Assembly: GCA_021810455.1 (NCBI GenBank)
Contig: JAJZIU010000003.1
Coordinates: 1-49,172, forward strand
Reading direction: 5' to 3'
From: Candidatus Micrarchaeota archaeon
GTDB lineage: Archaea > Micrarchaeota > Micrarchaeia > Micrarchaeales > CABMGC01
DNA: 49,172 bases
Below the pieces are notes generated by a model. It saw nothing but the letters and a program-made list of their open reading frames with translations, searched no databases and was not told where the DNA came from. This document shows positions 2 to 42,393 of this stretch, in pieces (position 1 is the first letter of the stretch; every line of letters begins with the position of its first letter). The position numbers and the translations under genes are program-made.

Positions 2-589
2 AGTTGTAGGAGAGCCGTAACTGGTTGTAGGAACACTCCACACGGTTTCGCCATTATAAGCATTAAGCGAAGTGAGGTACGAAGAAGATGATGTTGTATT
101 TGTTGTGAAGAGCATGTTGTTGTAGAGCATTAGATAACCCGGAGTCGAGGTTGGGAAGTTTCTTTGCCATACTTTGCTCCCATAAGTTGCATTCAGAGCG
201 TATATCGTATTTCCAGAAGCAAAGTAGATATTGCCATAATTGACAAAAACCTTGGAGTTTATCGTGCTGTTGGTTGGAAATATGAATGATATAGAAGATG
301 ATAAAGGACCGTACCCGGTAGCACCACTGTTTGCATTGTTTTTTTGATACTCGTTCCAAGTATCAGTACTTGCAGCTCCTTGATAGGTTATATTATATGC
401 AGTAGGGTTTCCAGTAGCCAACTCGCCGATGTTTGCTGACATCAATGTTTTTGATATTCCTTGCACATCGGCATAAGCAGATAGATAAGGAGCTGGAGGA
501 TAATAACTGAAGTATAGAAGTATGGATATGGCTACCGAAGCTATTATCAATGAGAATATTGCGTCTGTGGTAAAGACTACGGCTCGCAT
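2..589 (-). CDS. Secreted/surface protein with class III (pilin-like) signal peptide and PQQ-like beta-propeller repeats; 3' end runs off the window
   Basis: Not in the ORF track. Manual translation from ATG 589 is open to the edge: MRAVVFTTDAIFSLIIASVAISILLYF...YGNIYFASGNTIYALNATYGSKVWQ...LTSLNAYNGETVWSV. AL(N/D)xxxGxxxW units are typical of PQQ-like propellers. Confidence 0.75.
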   Translation of the reverse strand, partial: MRAVVFTTDAIFSLIIASVAISILLYFSYYPPAPYLSAYADVQGISKTLMSANIGELATGNPTAYNITYQGAASTDTWNEYQKNNANSGATGYGPLSSSISFIFPTNSTINSKVFVNYGNIYFASGNTIYALNATYGSKVWQRNFPTSTPGYLMLYNNMLFTTNTTSSSSYLTSLNAYNGETVWSVPTTSYGSPTT

Positions 590-679
590 ATGCTTTAGTA
601 TCCATATTCATGTTTTTATTGCTATGCGTGGACGACAGTGTAGATGGTTTATAATTGGCAAACCATTATACAGGATAAA

Positions 680-2743
680 TCACGTTCTGACCTTGTTTGG
701 AGTCGGATTTGATCTGCGAAGCACACTTGCTATATTGACTCCGGAAGTGCTTATCTCTTTTATCTTATCTTCGCAGAATTGCGAGAAGCGAGATAGCATG
801 TTGCCATAAATTCCGCCGTTGGTGATTTTATCGCTTAGTCCTCTCCTCATCATCTGCATATCAACATATCTGGATTTTTTGGACAGTTCCTGCAATGAAG
901 ATATAACACGCTCATCGTAAGAATTCTCACGTATCATCCTTCCAACATCTATTGCTTGCACAAAGTTGAGTTTGGGATCTGAAGAGTTAAGTAGAAGTTT
1001 CATGTCAAGCCGATCTATCCTCCCTCTTTCGAAATCTGCTATGTGTACCATAGAGAGAACCATGTTGTCTATTATTGCGTTTTGCTTGTCTGGTACGAGT
1101 CCGAAATCACGCATAATTACATCAAGACCAACTTCCCTGCCCAGCAAGTATGTAGCATATGCTTTTGATGCTTCGTTTAGTTCGCGACTGCGGATTACAT
1201 ACTTTAGCATAGGAAAATAACTCTCGCTTATTTTGTCTTTCATAAGGAGTTCCCCGAATAGTGGCTTTCTCACATCGCTATCGTGAAATGCATGCTTTGA
1301 GAGATTACCAGCTATTTCAGGATCATTGAGTTTGCCAAACCTACTAAGTTCCACAACTATTTCTTTTTTTATTACCGCAGGCTGGTTCTGTAATTCTTTT
1401 TTAAGAACCTCGAGTATGCGTTCCTTGGATCCATGGACCATTTCGAGTTGATATGCTCTCAGTTTCAGTTCGTTAGATTTTGAATCGAAAGTATCGTGAA
1501 GCGTTTTTATTATATCGGCCATACCTTCTGAAGATTTAGTATAAGTCATAGATTTTACTAAAGCTATAAGAACGGTTTCGTCAGACTCTTTGAGTAGGGC
1601 TTTTTGAGCCATTTGAGGAGTTATTACACCATGCTCACCTAGCTGCATGAACGCTTGCATGCGTACCGCAGGTATTGAGTCGTTGTATGCTGAGAACTGT
1701 ATGATCGGTTTGTATCTTTCAAAATTTATTTTTGACATGGCATATATGGATAGTTCTCTCATTCCAGGATCGTCATTTGATTTGAAGGCGCGAAGAAGAA
1801 CGTCATTCTCATCTATCCTTGCCGATATAGAAAACCACATAGCAGCATATGCGAGAGACTTGTTTCCATTCTTTTTCATGCCTTCATCGAAAAGATATCG
1901 AATATCCTTCTGCAGATCAGCTTCACTTATCATACCAGCGTGCAGTAGTATGTTATCCCTAACTTCTATCATTAGCGGATCGCTTGTCTTGAATTTCAAG
2001 GCTCTTTCTCCAAGTTCATTGAAGCCGTCCTTTCCAAGCATCATTAGAAGTGTGGATATTTCAAATGCACCAGTGTATCTTGCAAGGAAATATAGGTGAT
2101 CGCTCTCCGGCCAGAATTTTTGGCCTTCTTTTGTAACATGTATTGGTTGCAATCCGTGTTTAAGTAGATAGAAGCTTGTAAAAAGTCTGTCCAATCTTCC
2201 GTTTCCATCTTCGAAAGGATGCAGATCTACAAGTCTTAGGAAAAATTCTGTTGAACTTGCAAATGCATCAATAGGGGAATCATGTTTTAGGTTTAGTAAG
2301 GATATTATCTCATTAAGGTCTTTTTCTACAGTGCTTACTGGAGTGACTATGTGTGGTCCGTTGCTAAGTCTGTATCTTCTCAATCCTTCTTTGTACTTAC
2401 CGTTCCCATATATGCCATCAAGTAATCTTTTTCTTACCGCAAGCACATCGGATGTTGTTACCTCCTTATCATTCAAATCAACAAGCATGTCCAGTACATT
2501 GGATGAGTTAAGTATGGCTATGTAATCAGGTATTTTGCCGTCTTTTTCGCGTATCGCACCGCTCAAAAACAAATCTATGGGACTGATGGATTTCGCATCC
2601 GCATCTGTTTCAGAATAGAATATTGCTTTAATTATACTGTGTGACAATTCCGATCTGAAATCGCCTTTTACGGATATCAGATCAGATATCCCAAGTCTCT
2701 CGAGCATCTCCTTGTAATGGGCTTCCATAAAAACATTCCACAC
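680..2743 (-). CDS. Fic-domain protein (putative AMPylase) with C-terminal HEAT-like helical repeats
   Basis: Canonical Fic motif HPFEDGNGRLDR; repeats such as SNDDPGMRELSIYAM, NDSIPAVRMQAFMQLG, DSKSNELKLRAY. Start uncertain (GTG 2743 or ATG 2728). Confidence 0.85.
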   Translation of the reverse strand: MWNVFMEAHYKEMLERLGISDLISVKGDFRSELSHSIIKAIFYSETDADAKSISPIDLFLSGAIREKDGKIPDYIAILNSSNVLDMLVDLNDKEVTTSDVLAVRKRLLDGIYGNGKYKEGLRRYRLSNGPHIVTPVSTVEKDLNEIISLLNLKHDSPIDAFASSTEFFLRLVDLHPFEDGNGRLDRLFTSFYLLKHGLQPIHVTKEGQKFWPESDHLYFLARYTGAFEISTLLMMLGKDGFNELGERALKFKTSDPLMIEVRDNILLHAGMISEADLQKDIRYLFDEGMKKNGNKSLAYAAMWFSISARIDENDVLLRAFKSNDDPGMRELSIYAMSKINFERYKPIIQFSAYNDSIPAVRMQAFMQLGEHGVITPQMAQKALLKESDETVLIALVKSMTYTKSSEGMADIIKTLHDTFDSKSNELKLRAYQLEMVHGSKERILEVLKKELQNQPAVIKKEIVVELSRFGKLNDPEIAGNLSKHAFHDSDVRKPLFGELLMKDKISESYFPMLKYVIRSRELNEASKAYATYLLGREVGLDVIMRDFGLVPDKQNAIIDNMVLSMVHIADFERGRIDRLDMKLLLNSSDPKLNFVQAIDVGRMIRENSYDERVISSLQELSKKSRYVDMQMMRRGLSDKITNGGIYGNMLSRFSQFCEDKIKEISTSGVNIASVLRRSNPTPNKVRT

Positions 2744-2766
2744 TATGTTTTTGACACATTTTCATT

Positions 2767-2794
2767 TTGCATGTCATTGAACTTTGACATGCAA
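2767..2794. repeat. Perfect 10-bp inverted repeat TTGCATGTCA-N8-TGACATGCAA
   Basis: Read directly; lies just upstream of the Fic gene and covers the ATG (2790) of a 15-codon upstream ORF. Confidence 0.85.
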
Positions 2795-2807
2795 TACCCT
2801 ACCTGTA

Positions 2808-2922
2808 CAGAGTGATAATAGGTGCATACATGCCAGGCACTAAAGAAGAAGTTAAGGCAGTGAGCTAATGCAGTTCGTTGTCTTAAACCAAACACCTACA
2901 CTCTGATTATGGTGTCTTTTTT
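2808..2922 (+). ncRNA. Candidate structured RNA (nested stems, U-tract end), antisense to the Fic leader
   Basis: Outer stem CAGAGTG(ATAA)TAGGTG 2808-2824 pairs with CACCTA-CACTCTG 2893-2905. Inner 15-bp hairpin 2852-2866/2872-2886 has four G-U pairs that form only on the + strand. T6 run at 2917-2922. Confidence 0.45.
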
Positions 2923-2927
2923 GCTGA

Positions 2928-2942
2928 TATAAATACTTTTCT
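2928..2942 (-). promoter_or_regulatory. Putative BRE/TATA promoter for the Fic leader
   Basis: Minus strand reads AGAAAAG-TATTTATA: a purine-rich BRE-like run followed by a TATA box. Confidence 0.45.
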
Positions 2943-3060
2943 AACGTGTAAAGTCAAGAATTGAAAATCAAGCATAGCAATAAATAGTAGTAATTACTTA
3001 ATAGTTAGTTTGTTGACTAACAGAAACACTTGCACTGTTAAGCTGTTTTTTATTTATATG

Positions 3061-4215
3061 TCATCTCCATCGAGTCTTTGGAAGCAGCACATCCTTGTAA
3101 TTTTCTAGCCTGTTTTTGTTTGGAAGTAGATCCTTTATGATTTCACCTATTGCATCTTTCATTTGTACTTTTAGCTTGAATCCTAATGAAGGCAGCACGG
3201 TCCTTTCAGGATTGTAATGATGCTGTTCCTCTTCAACTCTTGGATTTTCAACATTTTTTATTTTTGCATCTATACCTAGTTTTGCTGCTTCAGTTTTTAC
3301 TATCTCGGCGATCTCATTCACACTTAGCAATTCCATGAATTGGTTTACAGATCGGTATTCTCCAGTCTTTGGTTTGTTCTCTATGAGAAGGGTCAATGCA
3401 TCCATGCTATCTTGCAATGAGAGGAATCCGCGAATTTGACCCCCTTTACCGTATGGCGTTAGTGGTTCTCCCAGAATGGCCTCGACACAATACCTATTGA
3501 CAACAGTCCCCCACACCGCATCGAAATCAAATCTCGTGAATAGATCTTCACTTTTTATCTCGCTCGTCCTAGTACCATATACAGGCCCTTGCATTATGTC
3601 GGTCATTGTTATCCCCCATAATTTATTTGCGAATAATAGATTGTTAGTATCGTGAACTTTTGTCCAGTGATACCAGGAACCGCCCCATTTTGGAGTGGTT
3701 ATCTTGTCTCTTTTGCCTTTTATTTCCACGTCAACAAACGGTGCTTCGGGTATATCGAATTTTGGAGTTCCGAATTCCCCCATAGTGCCCATTTTCACAA
3801 CGTGAGTATCTAAATCAGCACCCCTTATAGCATAAATGAGGTTGATTGTTCCGTTGATATTATTTCTCATAGTGTAGGTAGCATGATTTACATCAATCAT
3901 CGAGTATGGTGCAGATCTTTGCTCAGCAAAGTGTACTATCGTTTCAGGTGTGTGCTCTTTTATAGTATCACATATGAGTTTGTAATCAGTTATGTCACCC
4001 TTTACAAATGTTATTTTGCCTTTGAATTCTTTATTTGCAATTTTGACACGTTCATCCATGGACTTAATCGGGAGGGCCGATATAGACCCAACCTCTTCCA
4101 CAGATTTCCTTGTTGCCATGTTGTCGATTCCTATAACTTCGTATCCTTTAGATGCCATTCTCAGTGCCAGTGGCCATCCCAAATATCCGTCTATTCCCAA
4201 TATCATTACTTTCAA
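3061..4215 (-). CDS. agl3: UDP-sulfoquinovose synthase (Agl3/SqdB)
   Basis: GIDGYLG Rossmann motif, HFAEQRSAPYSM, KMGTMGEFGTP, YHWTK, DIMQGPVYG, NPRVEEEQHHYNP; TTG start 4 nt after GGTGA. Confidence 0.93.
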   Translation of the reverse strand: MKVMILGIDGYLGWPLALRMASKGYEVIGIDNMATRKSVEEVGSISALPIKSMDERVKIANKEFKGKITFVKGDITDYKLICDTIKEHTPETIVHFAEQRSAPYSMIDVNHATYTMRNNINGTINLIYAIRGADLDTHVVKMGTMGEFGTPKFDIPEAPFVDVEIKGKRDKITTPKWGGSWYHWTKVHDTNNLLFANKLWGITMTDIMQGPVYGTRTSEIKSEDLFTRFDFDAVWGTVVNRYCVEAILGEPLTPYGKGGQIRGFLSLQDSMDALTLLIENKPKTGEYRSVNQFMELLSVNEIAEIVKTEAAKLGIDAKIKNVENPRVEEEQHHYNPERTVLPSLGFKLKVQMKDAIGEIIKDLLPNKNRLENYKDVLLPKTRWR

Positions 4216-9526: not shown

Positions 9527-9671
9527 ACAATCCCAATGTTGTTTAATGTTACAACATTATAATACAAGATTATAAAAACCTTTCAGAAGCTGACTCAGAT
9601 AACTATGCAGGCATAATGAGGTTATAGAAACATTTTTAAACGATAGGTTTTTATGAAGAATAGGGATTGGT

Positions 9672-9870
9672 ATGAACGGTTTTGAATCAAACATAGAGAC
9701 GGATACTGTTGCAAATGGAGATTTTAGAAGGGTTTTGTATACGGGAAAGCATAGCCAACTTGTTCTTATGAGCCTAAAACCCGGGGAGGAGATAGGAGAG
9801 AGTATAGGGTTTGATGCTGTTGATGCTGGGAAGTTAAAGTCTGCAAGATATCTTGAGGCTCTGGGAATGC
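9672..9870 (+). pseudogene. Fusion remnant: cupin N-terminus joined to the C-terminal part of an F420/NADP-oxidoreductase-like gene, interrupted by the IS
   Basis: FRRVLYTGKHSQLVLMSLKPGEEIGE (cupin start; the metal-binding His region is missing), then SIGFDAVDAGKLKSARYLEALGM. Confidence 0.7.
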
Positions 9871-10050
9871 GTGACATCCCCCCCACCCGTAAACGGCGTG
9901 GGCTTCCTCTGCGTTCATGCAATCACTGCATCGTGCAGAGGATGTGTTTTATCGGTTCTCAGTTCTTCGAGAGTTGCCTCCTGTTGAGGTCTTACATTCT
10001 CTCCCCGAGCGTGACTTTCCCTCTGTCCGAGGGTAGCTCTTTTGGGTATG
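9871..10050 (-). ncRNA. Predicted TnpB reRNA (omega RNA) scaffold; guide read from the flank below 9871
   Basis: Established TnpB architecture plus the right-end hairpin; the 5' boundary is approximate. Confidence 0.6.
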
Positions 10051-11126
10051 TTTATTGATGCGTTTATGTCCCTGTCCAACTGCAATCCGCATTTATCGCA
10101 GTTGTATTCTCTGACGGAGAGTGGCATTTCCCGTATGTTGCCACAATTACTGCACTCCTTTGATGTATTCCTTGCGTCTACTTTCATTACCTTCATACCA
10201 GCACTTTCAGCCTTGTATGAGAGGTATTGGACGAACCTGTTCCATGAAGCGTTCTGTATCGAACCTGCCAATCTGTGATTCTTTACCATGTTTTGTATAC
10301 GCAGGTCTTCCACTGCAAATGAAGTATATCCTGAATTGACGAGAGTATCTGAAAGTTTGTGAAGATAATCATCTGATTGGTTTGTTATGTGTTCGTATGT
10401 CTTCTGGAGATCTGCCTTCGCCTTCTCCCTTCTCTTTGAGCCTTTGTTCCTCCTTGCGACTACCCTTTGCCAATGCGAAATCCTTTTTCTGTTCTGTTGC
10501 ATGAACTTTGGCTTCTCTATCTTTGTTCCGTCTGAAATTGCAATGAATGAATCCAGTCCTAGATCTATCCCGACTGGATTGGTGTTCTCCACTTCGGGAA
10601 TTCTGATGTTATTTATCGTGGTGAAGATTGCGTAATAGTTCTTTCCTTCCCGCTTTATTGCGAGCGTCTTTATTGTGCCTTCTATCTTCCTATGCAAATC
10701 TATCGGCATTGTTCCTATTCTTGAAATTCTTAGCCTGCCCTTTCTTATCGAGAAGGAACCATTGTCCTGTGGATAGGTTATTGACTTGTATCTGTCTTTT
10801 GACTTGAATCTTGGGAAGCCTGCCTTCCTGTTTCCTTCCTTGATTCTCCTGAAGAAATTTTGGTATGCCTTCATAAGCCTGAATTCTATCTCGCATCTTG
10901 TTTGCGAATACAGTTTCAGGTATTTCTTGTCTTCTTGAATTATTTCTTTTACAAATCTGTTGAATTGCGCCATTGATACTTTGTGATTGTCATTCTTATA
11001 TGATCGAATCGATTTCTCAAGAAGTCTATTGTAGAACCGCTGCGCAAGAATTAGGCGTTTATCTATTTCTTCCTGCCGTATGGTATCAGGATAGATTCGG
11101 AATTTATATGCCTTCGTCAATTCCAT
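9915..11126 (-). CDS. tnpB: RNA-guided endonuclease TnpB
   Basis: KAYKFRIYP, GFPRFK, RuvC residues GIDLG / AVEDL / DRDINA, zinc finger CSNCG...CDKCG. Confidence 0.96.
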   Translation of the reverse strand: MELTKAYKFRIYPDTIRQEEIDKRLILAQRFYNRLLEKSIRSYKNDNHKVSMAQFNRFVKEIIQEDKKYLKLYSQTRCEIEFRLMKAYQNFFRRIKEGNRKAGFPRFKSKDRYKSITYPQDNGSFSIRKGRLRISRIGTMPIDLHRKIEGTIKTLAIKREGKNYYAIFTTINNIRIPEVENTNPVGIDLGLDSFIAISDGTKIEKPKFMQQNRKRISHWQRVVARRNKGSKRREKAKADLQKTYEHITNQSDDYLHKLSDTLVNSGYTSFAVEDLRIQNMVKNHRLAGSIQNASWNRFVQYLSYKAESAGMKVMKVDARNTSKECSNCGNIREMPLSVREYNCDKCGLQLDRDINASINIPKRATLGQRESHARGENVRPQQEATLEELRTDKTHPLHDAVIA

Positions 11127-11216
11127 GTTGTTTATATCAATATCCCATTTCTATATACCTTTTGCGGTTCGCTTTCATCCCACCCATAAATGGTGTGGGA
11201 TTTCCCGCTCACTTTG

Positions 11217-11281
11217 TTAACATAGAGCTTGGTTTTTCTCAGAAACTCGGCACTGCAATAGGATTTAGATTGGTAAGATAA
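11217..11281 (+). pseudogene. 3' end of the IS-interrupted oxidoreductase remnant
   Basis: (L)NIELGFSQKLGTAIGFRLVR* continues ARYLEALGM from 9870 in frame. Confidence 0.75.
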
Positions 11282-11383
11282 CGGTAATAAATGCTGGATA
11301 TTTTATTAGTTATGCTTTAGAGAGCAGCAGTCAAGACTTATTATTCTTGCTATGTAAATCTTATGCGGTAGTGAGGAATTACA

Positions 11384-13081
11384 ATGAGGATACTTCAATT
11401 CGACGTTGACAACATAACTTATAAAGCGGTGAGACCAGAGGCAAGCATATATGAAGATCTTAAAAATAAAGATACGGTCTCAGTAGATGATACGCTTGTA
11501 ATATTCGTATGCGTTGAAAAAGGGGATGATGACAGCATAGCTGACAAGGCAATGGACGATACTGAAGAATTTATGAAAAAGTTAGACAGGAAAAAACTAG
11601 TGGTGTATCCGTTTGCCCATCTGAGCAGCGACTTAGCAGCACCAAGAGACGCGATGGCAATAATAGATCGCATGTATAAGGCAGTGCCTGAAAATATAGA
11701 GGCTTATAAAGCGCCTTTTGGATGGAACAAAAAATTGGATTTGGATGTTAAAGCCCATCCGTTGGCAGAACAATCCAGGAGCTATGGAGACGGAATTGAG
11801 AAGAAAATTTACAATAAAGCACGGCCAACAAGCATAAACACAGCAATAGTGAAGAAGAGCAGTTGGGCAGGTTTGCCTGAAAATGATCACAGGACGATAG
11901 GTGAAAAACTAGACCTATACAGCTTTCAGGAAGTTTCTCCAGCAATGGTTTATTGGCATCCTAATGGTTATGTTATATACAAAGAACTAATGAAATTCAT
12001 GAGGGAGAAGGAGGACGAATATGAATATAAAGAGATAAGCACTCCGATAGTTGCAAACACTGCACTATGGCATGTCAGCGGTCATATGGACTTTTACAGA
12101 AAGGATATGTTTATATTCGACTCTGGGTTCGGCGAATTGGGATTAAAACCGATGAACTGCCCTTCATCCATACTAATTTACAAATCAAAAACATGGAGCT
12201 ACAGGGATCTTCCTTTCAGAACTGCGATATTTGATAAGTTATATAGAAGTGAATTATCCGGAGTTGTGACAGGATTGTTTAGAGTTAAGGAGTTAACCCA
12301 AGATGATGGACACATCTTTCTTAAAGAAGATCAGATAGAGGATGAATTAACTTCTTTCTTAAGGATGGTTAAGGAAGTTTACACAACTTTTGACCTTAGA
12401 TTTAATGCGAAGTTATCAACAATGCCAAGTGAACATGTTGGAGATGAAAGCATGTGGGAAAGGGCCACCGCAGCGCTGAAAAATGCTTTGGAAAAAAATG
12501 ACGTGAAGTACGAAATTAAAGAAGGAGAGGGCGCGTTTTATGGCCCGAAGATAGATTTTGATGTTTTGGATTCCTTGGGAAGATTATGGCAGTGTGCAAC
12601 AGTGCAAGTAGACTATCAGATGCCACTAAAATTCAATCTTGAATACATGAACGAGAGTGGAAGCACAAGCATACCCGTAATAATACATCGTGCAGTATTG
12701 GGCAGTTTGGAGAGATTTATAGGAGTGATGACAGAGCACTATCAGGGGAAGTTCCCAACATGGCTTGCCCCAGTACAAGTGCGTGTAATATCGATATCCG
12801 AACAAACTGAAAAATATGCAAATGAAATTTACAAAGAACTCAGAAGTAATAGAATAAGAGCCGAGCTTGATGTCGGAGACAAAACATTAGAATATAAAAT
12901 AAGAGATTGCACGCTTCAGAAAATTCCTTACGCCATAATACTAGGTAAGAAGGAGGAAGAGAGGAATGAGATTACAATAAGGAGCAGGTCTGGACAGCAG
13001 AAACGTAATGTAAAAATAGGAGAATTTATAGAACAGCTAAAAGACGAAGTGACAACACGTTCCAATAATTTAGCGTTTTAG
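11384..13081 (+). CDS. thrS: Threonyl-tRNA synthetase (archaeal-type editing domain + bacterial-like catalytic domain)
   Basis: YPFAHLSS, APFGW, HPLAEQSR editing domain; KPMNCP, GLFRV, QDDGH, GAFYGPKID, IHRA, GSLERF. Confidence 0.97.
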   Translation: MRILQFDVDNITYKAVRPEASIYEDLKNKDTVSVDDTLVIFVCVEKGDDDSIADKAMDDTEEFMKKLDRKKLVVYPFAHLSSDLAAPRDAMAIIDRMYKAVPENIEAYKAPFGWNKKLDLDVKAHPLAEQSRSYGDGIEKKIYNKARPTSINTAIVKKSSWAGLPENDHRTIGEKLDLYSFQEVSPAMVYWHPNGYVIYKELMKFMREKEDEYEYKEISTPIVANTALWHVSGHMDFYRKDMFIFDSGFGELGLKPMNCPSSILIYKSKTWSYRDLPFRTAIFDKLYRSELSGVVTGLFRVKELTQDDGHIFLKEDQIEDELTSFLRMVKEVYTTFDLRFNAKLSTMPSEHVGDESMWERATAALKNALEKNDVKYEIKEGEGAFYGPKIDFDVLDSLGRLWQCATVQVDYQMPLKFNLEYMNESGSTSIPVIIHRAVLGSLERFIGVMTEHYQGKFPTWLAPVQVRVISISEQTEKYANEIYKELRSNRIRAELDVGDKTLEYKIRDCTLQKIPYAIILGKKEEERNEITIRSRSGQQKRNVKIGEFIEQLKDEVTTRSNNLAF

Positions 13082-14104: not shown

Positions 14105-14723
14105 AAAGTTGTTTGAGAGTGGCGAACAAAACATACTGATTAAGTGCAGAAATCTTGTCAGCATATCCATAAAGGCAAACACAATGCTCAGGGAAGTAAT
14201 AGATGGAGCACAGGTTTTGGGAGAAGTGAAAAAACTTGAAAGTGAAGCGAGCAAAAAATCGTTCATGCTTTCGAATTTGATAACTTCTGGTGCAATAGCT
14301 CCAAATATCATAGACAATATGATATCATTGGTAAATACTGAGGATGAAATAGTAGACTCAGTATTCAATCTTTCTAGACAGCTTTTGAGATACAAAATCG
14401 CTGATAATAAAAATGGAAATTTCCTAAGAGAGAATCTAATAAACATGAATGAACTGGCTTCCAATGCGCTTGGACAGCTATATGACATGCATACGACAGA
14501 TGACATAGGTAACATAGGAAAGATACGGACGAAGATAAAAACTCTTGAGAATAAGGGAGATGTGATAAAGGATAACGTTCTGGATTTTGTTTATAAATCA
14601 GACATGGACTTTAGAAGTTTTTATCACATTATGAATTCCACATATTTGGCAGATGATATATTAGATAATTGTGAAGATGCATCTGACATTTTCATGAGCA
14701 TAATGCTTTCACTAACAACATGA
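14091..14723 (+). CDS. DUF47/PhoU-like phosphate transport accessory protein
   Basis: All-helical; LENKGD and DDILDNCEDASD motifs; upstream of the PiT gene. Confidence 0.8.
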   Translation: MDLIKKLFESGEQNILIKCRNLVSISIKANTMLREVIDGAQVLGEVKKLESEASKKSFMLSNLITSGAIAPNIIDNMISLVNTEDEIVDSVFNLSRQLLRYKIADNKNGNFLRENLINMNELASNALGQLYDMHTTDDIGNIGKIRTKIKTLENKGDVIKDNVLDFVYKSDMDFRSFYHIMNSTYLADDILDNCEDASDIFMSIMLSLTT

Positions 14724-16179: not shown

Positions 16180-16241
16180 TAAACCACAATGAATATAGCC
16201 TTTCTCTTCTATATTTTTATCTACTGTTTATAAGTGATTAG

Positions 16242-25325: not shown

Positions 25326-26813
25326 TTAGAACTCTTTTATCCCTATCTTCTTGAGCTCTTGTTCAGTCATGGCTTCATCAGCACCGACAGTGACTCTTGA
25401 AAGAAGTGCGAGATACTTTGTCAAACCTACCTCCTGTCCTTCAGGACTTTCTGATACACAAATCTTTCCCCATTGAGTCCCATGGACATCTCTTGCTTTG
25501 AAGTGGGGATGCTTTTTAGCTAGAGGAGACTTTACTCTTCTCAGATGTGCATACGTGCTTATCATGTTTGTTCTGTCAAGTACCTGCGATACCCCAGTTT
25601 GACCAGCAACCCACATTCCAGTACCCATAGCATAAGCTATCTTTTCGGTGAGAGTATCGGGACTTATTATCGATTGCATTCCTAGTCTCCTTCCCCTGGC
25701 ACTCATCCTTTCGACTTGGTATTTGACTTCTTTTAGGAAGAATCTAAACGCATATGCAAAAAGTTCTTCCATGAGTTCTCCAGAAAATCTGACTCTCTTA
25801 TTTGCATAGTGATCTTTGTCATCCTGTTTGACCATTTTATTAGCAACCAGTGTTCCCTTTCTTGCCATTTGCAGCAGATATCTTGCCTTTTCTTTTCTGC
25901 TAGTTGCATCATTGCCTATGTGAGGAAGAAGATAGCTATCCATCTGAGTTTCTGCCCTTTTTATCTGGTACTCCTTTGCCTGTCCCGGAGCTGCCATTTT
26001 ACCTATCTCCCAGAGTGCTTCTGAAGGCTGCATATCTCCATTTTCTGACAGGGGGCTAGTCTCTATACACAGCAATATATCATTTTTGAAATGCAGTACA
26101 TCACTCGCGTACTCTTTCATATCAGTAACCTGTAGACCCAATGCCCTAAGTAAAAGTATTAGATCTATGCTTTTACTCACTGTTGGAAAATCAACAGTAA
26201 ATATGCCATTTTGATTTCTAGATACAACACACCTTGCTCTGAATCCAGGTGTTGATGAAAACACCCTACTTTTAACTTCGGTACCTCCCTTCTCTTTTGT
26301 AGTTATTATCCTGTTTGAAGCCACATCCTCTAGACCTATAAGAACTCTTTCTACTCCTTTTATTATGAAATATCCGCCAGGATCATCAGGATCCTCACCG
26401 TTTTCTATGAGTTGATCCCTGCTTAATACGCGCGTGTTGCATATGCTGCTTCCGACCATAACCGGAAGTTCTCCTACGAATACATCCCCATAAGACCCGA
26501 CCTTTTCTATACCACGTATAACAGGAATTACTTCCATGAATATAGGAGCGGAATAAGTAACGTTCCTAAGACGCGCCTCGTTCGGAGTTATACTTCTCCT
26601 AGAACTGTCTGCCTCTATTATTGAAGGGCTACCTATACGGACATTGCCAAGTTTTAATGCGAAGCCCTCTACACTGGGTTCTATCAAACTCTGTTTTGCA
26701 ACTATTTTTTTAATACCAGTATCGACAAATCTATTGTAACTCTCAGTCTGGTGCTGCACCAGTGCTGAAGGGCTTAGATACTTATCCATCAAGCTAAAAT
26801 CTTCATCAACCAT
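25326..26813 (-). CDS. rpoB2: RNA polymerase subunit B'' (Rpo2N)
   Basis: EARLRNVTYSAP, DPGGYFII, DDKDHYANKR, GVSQVLDR. Confidence 0.97.
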   Translation of the reverse strand: MVDEDFSLMDKYLSPSALVQHQTESYNRFVDTGIKKIVAKQSLIEPSVEGFALKLGNVRIGSPSIIEADSSRRSITPNEARLRNVTYSAPIFMEVIPVIRGIEKVGSYGDVFVGELPVMVGSSICNTRVLSRDQLIENGEDPDDPGGYFIIKGVERVLIGLEDVASNRIITTKEKGGTEVKSRVFSSTPGFRARCVVSRNQNGIFTVDFPTVSKSIDLILLLRALGLQVTDMKEYASDVLHFKNDILLCIETSPLSENGDMQPSEALWEIGKMAAPGQAKEYQIKRAETQMDSYLLPHIGNDATSRKEKARYLLQMARKGTLVANKMVKQDDKDHYANKRVRFSGELMEELFAYAFRFFLKEVKYQVERMSARGRRLGMQSIISPDTLTEKIAYAMGTGMWVAGQTGVSQVLDRTNMISTYAHLRRVKSPLAKKHPHFKARDVHGTQWGKICVSESPEGQEVGLTKYLALLSRVTVGADEAMTEQELKKIGIKEF

Positions 26814-40948: not shown

Positions 40949-42247
40949 TTATTTCATAAACTGTGAAAATCTCTTTTTTACGTTTCTATCGTTTTTAAAC
41001 ATTTCATAAAACTTTTTCATTTTGCTGAAGTCGCTTAACAAGCCTTTAACTTCTTTTTCGTCGGTACCGCTGCCCATCGAAATCCTTCGTATCCTACTTG
41101 GATCTCTCACTAATTTTTCGCTTTGTCTTTCCTCTTTAGTCATTGAACCGATTATTGCCTTATACACTTTGAGTTTGCCTTCTCCTTGTTCAACGTACTC
41201 TTTTGGAACATCTGCAAAACCCATCATACCAAGTACATTTTTCATCGGACCCATTTTTGACATGGCTTTCAACTGTGTGTAGAAAGTATCAAAATTAAGT
41301 TCGGTTACTTCGACTTCTTCGGGTTTTATATTAGCTTCCCTTATTGCTTCGTTTACATGCGTTGCGAGGGCCTCTAAATCAGGTATACCAAGCAATCTGC
41401 CTACAAATTTCTCAGAGTTATACAGTTCAAGAGAGTTGAGTTTTTCACCAGTACCTATAAACATTATATTTACATTTGCAGCGCTAACCGCACTTAGTGC
41501 ACCGCCTCCTTTGCCACTTCCGTCCATTTTTGTTACTACTACGCCAGTTATATTTATCGCGTTATTGAACTCTTTGGCTTGTGTTCCTGCAACTTGCCCT
41601 ATATCAGCATTTATTACCAGGAGTTTTTCGTCGGGTTTGAATTCGTTGTTTATCTGTATTAGCTCGTTTACCAGTTGTTGGTCCAATGCACTCCTTCCGC
41701 TAGAATCGCATATTATTACCTTCCTTGAACCAAGTTCTTTCAATCCTTCAGTTACTATTTTCTTTACATCTGTTTCCCCTTTTATTCCGAAGAATTGTGC
41801 GTTGGCCTGTTTTGAGAGCATCTCTAGTTGTTCAAATGCGGCTGGTCTTGAAACGTCACAACAGATCATGCCCACGCTAAGACCGCGGTCTTGATAAAAT
41901 TTCGCGAGTTTTGCAGCAGTGGTTGTCTTTCCAGAACCATATATCCCTACAAGCAGTATCCGTTTGGGTTTTATTTCTGGCTGATGATTCTTTCCCATCA
42001 ATTTAACAAGTTCCTGATAGACAGTATTAGTTACATATTCTTTAGGACTTATTCCTTCTGGGAGCTTATTATGAAGCGCTATGTCTTCTATTTTTTTAGT
42101 AAATTCGAATACGAGATTTATATCAACATCAGAAGAGATTAGTGCTTTTTGAAGTTCTTTGTTAAACTCGCGTATTGTTTTCGAATCTATTATTGTTGAG
42201 CCGGTGAGCCTAGATATTGCCTTCCTGATACCCTCTCCTAAATCCAT
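40949..42247 (-). CDS. srp54: Signal recognition particle protein SRP54
   Basis: GIYGSGKTT, DVSRPAA, DSSGR, TKMD, GTGE, M domain SMTKEER / SRIRRISMGSG. Confidence 0.96.
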   Translation of the reverse strand: MDLGEGIRKAISRLTGSTIIDSKTIREFNKELQKALISSDVDINLVFEFTKKIEDIALHNKLPEGISPKEYVTNTVYQELVKLMGKNHQPEIKPKRILLVGIYGSGKTTTAAKLAKFYQDRGLSVGMICCDVSRPAAFEQLEMLSKQANAQFFGIKGETDVKKIVTEGLKELGSRKVIICDSSGRSALDQQLVNELIQINNEFKPDEKLLVINADIGQVAGTQAKEFNNAINITGVVVTKMDGSGKGGGALSAVSAANVNIMFIGTGEKLNSLELYNSEKFVGRLLGIPDLEALATHVNEAIREANIKPEEVEVTELNFDTFYTQLKAMSKMGPMKNVLGMMGFADVPKEYVEQGEGKLKVYKAIIGSMTKEERQSEKLVRDPSRIRRISMGSGTDEKEVKGLLSDFSKMKKFYEMFKNDRNVKKRFSQFMK

Positions 42248-42304: not shown

Positions 42305-42393
42305 GGGCTCGTAGCTCAGCCTGGTTAGAGCGGCGGTCTTATAATAAATCATAAGAGAGCCGTAGGTCAGGAGTTCAAATCTCCTCGGGCCCA
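42305..42393 (+). tRNA. tRNA-Ile(UAU) with a 14-nt intron at 37/38 (42344-42357)
   Basis: Acceptor GGGCTCG/CGGGCCC+A, D-stem GCTC/GAGC, anticodon arm GCGGT-CT-TAT-A^A-GCCGT, T arm AGGAG-TTCAAAT-CTCCT; splice helix CTTA/TAAG flanked by 3-nt bulges. Confidence 0.9.

Follow-up and report, generated by a model that had tools for sequence, protein, structure and literature searches.

Why would a compact archaeal genome keep a long stretch of non-coding DNA directly upstream of the gene for a Fic enzyme? The source of the DNA is such a genome: the window, by which we mean the whole stretch of 49,172 nt that was analysed, carries split RpoA and RpoB genes and also encodes MCM, SRP54, an RNase P Rpr2 subunit and a ThrRS editing domain of archaeal type. 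A previous description of the locus, which we call the sequence-only reading, had portrayed the genome as having almost no intergenic space, and on our own ORF set 2,898 of the 49,172 nt (5.9%) are indeed intergenic. The gap of interest is flanked by two minus-strand genes, for an epimerase/dehydratase and for a Fic-HEAT protein, and by the same ORF set it is the second largest of the 12 gaps of at least 80 nt in the window. The length of 317 bp first given for it holds if Fic translation starts at GTG 2743; however, the N termini of homologues agree with a start at ATG 2728, which is therefore the supported choice and would make the gap 332 nt. That 332 nt of non-coding sequence, with the two strongest hairpins of the window, has been kept despite so small an intergenic share and the short leaders of other genes makes it unlikely that the gap is idle.

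The sequence-only reading had described three helices in this gap, namely a hairpin at 2767-2794, a 13-bp outer stem with a 4-nt bulge and a 15-bp hairpin at 2852-2886 whose four G-U pairs form only on the + strand, with a T6 tract after them. We found each of these features (Table 1). The first hairpin and the outer stem are present both in the sequence and in the + strand MFE fold, the outer stem consisting of 7 bp (2808-2814/2899-2905) plus 6 bp (2819-2824/2893-2898) with the bulge AUAA at 2815-2818. All four of the non-Watson–Crick positions in the 15-bp hairpin are G-U on the + strand (2857-2881, 2860-2878, 2861-2877 and 2864-2874).

Table 1. Position, strand and basis of the features in and around the gap between the Fic-HEAT and epimerase genes (window coordinates)
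Feature	Position	Strand	Description	Basis
Perfect inverted repeat	2767-2776/2785-2794	either	10 Watson-Crick pairs, 8-nt loop; hairpin on either strand	Inverted-repeat search and fold
Core element	2808-2905	+	Outer stem around the inner hairpin and 27 unpaired, purine-rich nt (2825-2851)	
15-bp hairpin	2852-2866/2872-2886	+	Four G-U pairs, loop AAUGC	Fold; not formed by the minus strand
Extra 4-bp helix	2800-2803/2911-2914	+	Prolongs the outer stem; outside the predicted minus-strand transcript	+ strand MFE structure
T6 run	2917-2922	+	2 nt past the extended stem	Sequence
Weak A-U/G-U helix in minus-strand leader	2756-2765 with 2727-2736	-	Takes in the first two nucleotides of the Fic AUG	
BRE (AAAAG) and TATA (TATTTATAT)	2940-2927	-	Directed toward Fic	Window-derived PWM
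Fic-HEAT gene	680-2728	-	682 aa, HPFEDGNGRLDR motif	Pfam Fic 4.7e-11; HEAT_2 below cut-off
NAD-dependent sugar epimerase/dehydratase gene	3061-4215	-	Stop codon bounds the gap; last gene of a conserved upstream cluster	

Folding of both strands against shuffled sequences revealed that the structure is more stable than expected on the + strand. Over 2760-2925, the + strand reached an MFE of −47.9 kcal/mol (z −3.37), which none of 200 shuffles equalled. The minus strand gave a weaker result (−43.2 kcal/mol, z −1.70), which 11 of 200 shuffles equalled. For the core at 2808-2905, the corresponding values were z −3.10 (1 of 200 shuffles) on the + strand and z −1.83 (11 of 200) on the minus strand. 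This asymmetry arises from the 15-bp hairpin, which by itself folds at −14.5 kcal/mol on the + strand (z −3.70, 1 of 200 shuffles) compared with −3.5 kcal/mol on the minus strand (z +0.59, 145 of 200). The 2767-2794 hairpin alone exceeded all 200 shuffles on each strand (z −6.55 on +, z −4.76 on minus). Folded as single-stranded DNA, the core was no better than shuffles (z −1.35 and −0.90), so the signal depends on the pairing rules of RNA. Neither strand of the gap's remainder (2940-3060) folded better than shuffles. These results support a structure that is real, non-random and strand-asymmetric toward the + strand.

In scans of the whole window, the 2852-2886 hairpin is the longest uninterrupted hairpin on either strand when G-U pairs are allowed, and the 2767-2794 hairpin is the longest perfect one. 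Among 20 block-shuffled windows, hairpins matching the former averaged 0.3 per window and occurred in 4 of the 20, and perfect hairpins matching the latter averaged 0.65 and occurred in 7. We take the helices to be well beyond chance because the two best hairpins of the window are co-located, separated by 58 nt within 0.7% of its length, and one of them is nested exactly inside the 13-bp stem. By a weaker measure, the GC-corrected MFE of 166-nt windows, the + strand element ranks only 10th of 4,902, and about six other places, mostly coding, match it. Windows of this size that fold as low or lower occur at 14201-14386 (+), 26041-26286 (-), 42001-42166 (+), 501-686 (+) and 11141-11406 (+); most such windows are inside or antisense to coding sequence, and the last spans the gap upstream of ThrRS and TnpB. 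The TnpB gene itself (IS605 OrfB type, 9915-11126, minus strand) has Pfam matches to OrfB_IS605 and a Cas12f1-like TNB domain. Its 3' end and downstream sequence (9700-9960, minus strand) is GC-rich, ranks third in the window-wide MFE scan and is probably a guide (omega/reRNA) scaffold; a 121-aa ORF that overlaps this stretch (9557-9922) has no Pfam match and may be spurious.

We trained a PWM on 20 upstream regions taken from genes of the window, and it recovered a BRE of the AAAGG type ahead of an A/T-rich TATA. An earlier loose promoter pattern had been unspecific, with 379 sites in the window. The BRE/TATA that the sequence-only reading saw aimed at Fic lies outside the training set and proved to be a strong match to the genome's own promoters, with a score of 10.5 and a rank of 16 among 98,318 positions. 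From the usual archaeal TATA-to-start spacing, we take Fic transcription to begin at ~2903-2909, which coincides with the base of the outer stem (2905). Given this predicted start, the Fic leader would be ~180 nt long in a genome of short leaders: the Fic promoter lies ~200 nt 5' of the ATG, and the best-scoring sites of other genes begin 36–45 nt before the start codon. Because the promoter is strong and so distant from the ATG, the structured region is very probably transcribed on the minus strand, and a target for an antisense RNA would thus be available.

Two overlapping transcripts had been proposed for the gap. The long leader implied by the Fic-directed promoter sustains one half of that proposal, and any + strand RNA would therefore overlap this leader. 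The other half fared less well, as the PWM found no + strand site scoring at least 4 between 2601 and 2817; by eye, the only TATA-like sequence on this strand is ATAAAAACAT at 2727-2736, which lacks a purine-rich BRE. The T6 run would suit a + strand RNA as an oligo-T terminator; an equally good account is that it is A/T-rich sequence of the Fic promoter, at −12 to −17, between TATA and start. The + strand of the window has 66 runs of six or more T, the minus strand has 34, and such runs are missing from many gene ends. The AT-rich remainder of the gap (2940-3060) contains more TATA-like sites, at 2974-2987 on the + strand and 3059-3046 on the minus strand (score 7.0 each), as well as another T6 at 3043-3048. 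Elsewhere, in the 62-nt divergent gap between the S8e gene and a 142-aa ORF (16180-16241), one A/T-rich box reads as TATA in both directions and may be a shared bidirectional promoter.

The RNA family had gone unrecognised in the sequence-only reading, and a search of 2650-3150 against Rfam with E values up to 10 likewise returned no family, cis-regulatory ones included, and its best match over 2767-2922 was SSRC34_2 at 15.7 bits against a gathering score of 48. At gathering scores, a tRNA was the only Rfam 15 match in the whole window. This tRNA gene (42305-42393, + strand, 57.8 bits), to which ARAGORN gave no identity, reads CU-UAU-A in its anticodon loop, and 15 extra nt come directly after this where tRNA introns usually lie. 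This suggests that the tRNA has an intron and the anticodon UAU (Ile, AUA).

We also considered the small RNA classes that archaea are known to make. Archaeal C/D box sRNAs are about 50–70 nt long, with an RUGAUGA C box and a CUGA D box at the ends and C'/D' boxes in between. The gap contains GUGAUAA (one mismatch) at 2812-2818 and CUGA at 2903-2906, but these are 85 nt apart in a perfect Watson–Crick stem, no C'/D' boxes were seen by eye and no snoRNA match passed in the Rfam search. In archaeal H/ACA sRNAs, an ACA box follows the pocket on its 3' side at a distance of about 14–15 nt, and the upper stem contains a K-turn or K-loop. Here, the distance from the pocket to the stem end on the 3' side is 19 nt and is followed by AUU (by eye), the upper hairpin has no tandem G-A pairs and the pocket is very asymmetric (27 versus 6 nt). 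Both classes were rejected.

The gap likewise lacks coding potential. Eight ORFs of at least 20 aa overlap 2700-3080. The candidate small protein gene among them, a 50-aa ORF on the minus strand (2743-2895) whose TAG stop overlaps the GTG at 2743, has no Pfam match, homologue or inhibitory motif. A decayed gene remnant was also rejected, as tblastx of 2700-3100 against 80 related loci gave a best E value in the gap of 0.082.

Our best reading, held tentatively, is that the gap encodes a lineage-specific antisense sRNA on the + strand that overlaps the Fic leader. The proposed gene would span roughly 2756-2922 and specify a structured non-coding RNA of about 165 nt, comprising from 5' to 3' the 2767-2794 hairpin, the outer stem with the 15-bp G-U hairpin and 27-nt purine-rich strand, and an oligo-U end. 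This sRNA would be convergent to the Fic-HEAT mRNA and lie wholly within its 5' leader beginning near 2905. It may act in cis by pairing with the leader, starting at the complementary loops that the palindromic hairpin presents on both RNAs, and + strand transcription would also run into the Fic promoter. Together, pairing and transcription into the promoter would keep Fic expression down. What the sequence itself displays are the helices with their strand asymmetry and their rarity in the window, a Fic promoter match of high quality and the lack of coding potential; the + strand transcription, the ends of the RNA and its regulatory effect we infer.

A + strand RNA is favoured because the 15-bp hairpin forms on that strand only and because the stability is specific to RNA, and it is disfavoured because no + strand promoter was found. 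We also counted in its favour the T6 run directly past the extended stem, the GC-rich core (GC 0.43 versus 0.26 in the remainder of the gap, 2921-3060) and the lack of a coding alternative, there being no homologue of the 50-aa ORF and no remnant by tblastx. Counted against it were the frequency of T6 runs, the modest MFE rank, the lack of a second copy in the window and of related sequence in the 80 loci, and the gaps of 0–54 nt at the same place in three Micrarchaeota loci. The cis-antisense RNA of the sequence-only reading agrees with the fold asymmetry and the T6 run, but not with the PWM search for a + strand promoter. The promoter evidence as a whole is neutral between an antisense RNA with a leader and a leader alone, because both need the distant Fic promoter.

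A leader alone is the alternative that survives best, and we consider it somewhat unlikely. On this account there is no + strand RNA, and the structure belongs to the 5' leader of the Fic-HEAT mRNA on the minus strand: the 5'-terminal stem and palindromic hairpin would stabilise the mRNA or bind a factor, and the A-U/G-U helix over the AUG, with U5 just before it, would limit translation or read-through. It fits the promoter evidence equally well, given the high rank of the minus-strand BRE/TATA, the predicted start that meets the end of the outer stem and the negative PWM search on the + strand, and it accounts for the T6 run as promoter-proximal A/T. The outer stem and palindrome are purely Watson–Crick, so that they also fold on the minus strand, and the Fic AUG is itself paired. 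The helix over the AUG has an alternative in an 8-bp palindrome (2729-2736/2745-2752), and it is mostly this palindrome that makes minus-strand 2722-2800 more stable than shuffles (z −2.69, 3 of 200). However, the strongest helix, of 15 bp, is absent on the minus strand, which leaves a poorly structured interior of 68 nt, and overall folding of the minus strand does not clearly surpass shuffles for either the full region or the core (11 of 200 each). No Rfam cis-regulatory family matched either.

To place the locus among its relatives, we used 80 related loci obtained from a genome scan with the neighbouring epimerase, the nearest of which are from Candidatus Micrarchaeota MAGs with epimerases of at most 78% identity. 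The gene order phosphodiesterase–PGM–epimerase is retained in one of these loci (L001) and partly in two others (L004 and L006). After the epimerase, only 54, 10 and 0 nt precede the next gene in the three Micrarchaeota loci inspected there, L001, L003 and L004, respectively. A tblastn search with Fic found no Fic-HEAT homologue in the 80 loci, blastn with the gap gave no match in them below E 0.36, and a single-sequence covariance model of the element (R1) had its best foreign match there at 17.1 bits (E 1.9). The closest relative among them is distant, which limits what these negatives say about conservation of the RNA. Judging by the inspected Micrarchaeota loci, which lack both the gene and the gap, and by L001, which keeps the upstream gene order, Fic-HEAT and its leader region seem to have been acquired in this lineage. 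L001 also contains a TnpB gene, 61% identical to that of the window, about 2 kb beyond its epimerase.

An explanation at the level of DNA, in which the RNA fold is functionless, is unlikely in our estimate: the repeats would be palindromes that a Fic regulator binds as operators, or else the ends or scar left by a small mobile insertion that brought in the Fic-HEAT gene. The arrangement is suggestive, with palindromes of 10+10 bp and 8+8 bp that share an 8-nt spacer and have their centres 40 bp apart just upstream of the ATG, an outer stem that resembles short terminal inverted repeats, the absence of the Fic-HEAT gene and gap from the three Micrarchaeota loci and a TnpB element elsewhere in the window. 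As a recurrent operator motif, however, the palindrome half-site (up to one mismatch) is not enriched, with 10 matches in the window versus 4.8 expected and as many in 3 of 100 shuffles; the remaining matches fall within ORFs of our set, with no enrichment in gaps. Of the features of a MITE, the inverted arms are present, but the element has a single copy in the window and none in the 80 loci, and no target-site duplication is visible in the surrounding sequence. Further copies, which the sequence-only reading had suggested looking for, are likewise missing from the 49-kb window, in which all blastn-short matches are 15 nt or shorter and the outer arm, allowing up to three mismatches, occurs once. 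Origins in a plasmid or phage were also rejected: a plasmid collection gave only chance matches of 35–37 nt (E 0.3), a phage collection gave none, and the Fic protein matched plasmids only as 23%-coverage hits to Lactococcus Fic genes. Moreover, decay of a palindrome would not be expected to leave four changes that are all G-U on one strand, and the single-stranded DNA fold is not significant. A DNA-level reading accounts for the perfection of the palindromes and for the apparent acquisition of the locus, but not for the one-strand G-U pattern.

Very improbable, finally, is that the helices are coincidental in non-coding DNA and were picked out by looking, which the similar GC-corrected energies of other, mostly coding places and the occurrence of a hairpin of at least 15 bp in 4 of 20 shuffled windows would allow, but against which stand the proximity of the two longest hairpins, the nesting of one in the 13-bp stem and the + strand energy that 0 of 200 shuffles reached.

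The gene that an antisense sRNA would restrain belongs to a very small family. Only 4 Fic-HEAT proteins were found among 5.8 billion searched; the three other homologues are 29–39% identical to the one studied here (39% for the nearest), and near-identical copies, with an identity of 90% or more, are encoded on other contigs (5 contigs). HPFEDxxGRxxR (residues 170-181 region) is invariant in all four proteins, the best solved relatives are of the FICD type (E 6e-9) and no Fic_N domain was matched. Also invariant in the four is Lys 34, in K[AS]I[FW]YS (residues 30-40), which we take to sit about where FICD-type enzymes carry the inhibitory Glu helix; it may, on this assumption, replace the inhibitory glutamate.

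The sequence-only reading had gone further and cast the RNA as an antitoxin to the Fic enzyme. We found nothing that supports such a role, and toxicity of this Fic protein is likewise conjecture. In its boldest form, which we rate as decidedly doubtful, the idea is that the rare Fic-HEAT AMP-transferase of a DPANN archaeon is controlled by a dedicated, highly structured antisense RNA within its own long leader, amounting to an RNA antitoxin. To our knowledge, Fic control is otherwise known only via protein antitoxins or built-in inhibitory helices.

Several known systems invite comparison. The class I Fic toxins VbhT/VbhA and FicT/FicA are restrained by a small protein antitoxin, encoded upstream, with the motif S/TxxxE(G/N). 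The locus resembles them in having a Fic gene with a possible restraint encoded just upstream, but the upstream 50-aa ORF lacks this motif (by eye) and has no Pfam family or homologue, and a class I antitoxin was rejected. In type I toxin–antitoxin systems such as hok/sok, an antisense RNA overlies the leader of a small hydrophobic toxin peptide. The candidate would similarly be antisense to the leader of a potentially harmful gene, and first contact through hairpin loops is conceivable. We rejected a type I system nevertheless: the target here is a 682-aa Fic-HEAT enzyme of putative toxicity rather than a small hydrophobic peptide, and the minus-strand 50-aa ORF is without a homologue. The type III antitoxin ToxI is a tandem repeat RNA array made from the same strand as its toxin. 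The candidate shares with it a structured RNA that adjoins a toxin-like gene, but a ToxIN-like system was rejected, as 2600-3200 contains no tandem repeats, the direct repeats found are limited to two weak ones with two copies each, and the RNA folds best from the strand opposite to Fic. Structured leaders in Rfam, such as riboswitches and RNA thermometers, are similar in their long leaders and helices, here with one over the start codon; they differ in that no family matched and the main helix is missing on the mRNA strand.

Antisense RNAs are widespread in archaea, where they also lie opposite type II toxin–antitoxin genes, and the majority lack conservation among related species (PMC6523106). 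The closest parallel is with the cis-antisense RNAs mapped in Halobacterium salinarum (PMC6523106), which, like the candidate, are opposite-strand RNAs over the 5' part of an mRNA and are lineage-specific in most cases. Those RNAs come from mapped transcription starts, and the candidate is known here from sequence only; compared with them, the candidate is unusually strongly folded and lies in a long leader rather than over the coding region. A full-text search of the available library found no paper that links Micrarchaeota with Fic, and a search of the same kind returned none devoted to Micrarchaeota small RNAs, as judged from titles and the openings of abstracts. The claim rests on one sequence and is thus a well-formed candidate, not a finding. 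If true, Micrarchaeota-like DPANN archaea, for which few candidate regulatory RNAs have been described, would gain a further one, and control at the RNA level would be tied to a Fic enzyme whose family is very small. Relative to these known systems, the candidate, if real, is notable for its strong fold, its place in a long leader of a very compact DPANN-type genome and its Fic partner.
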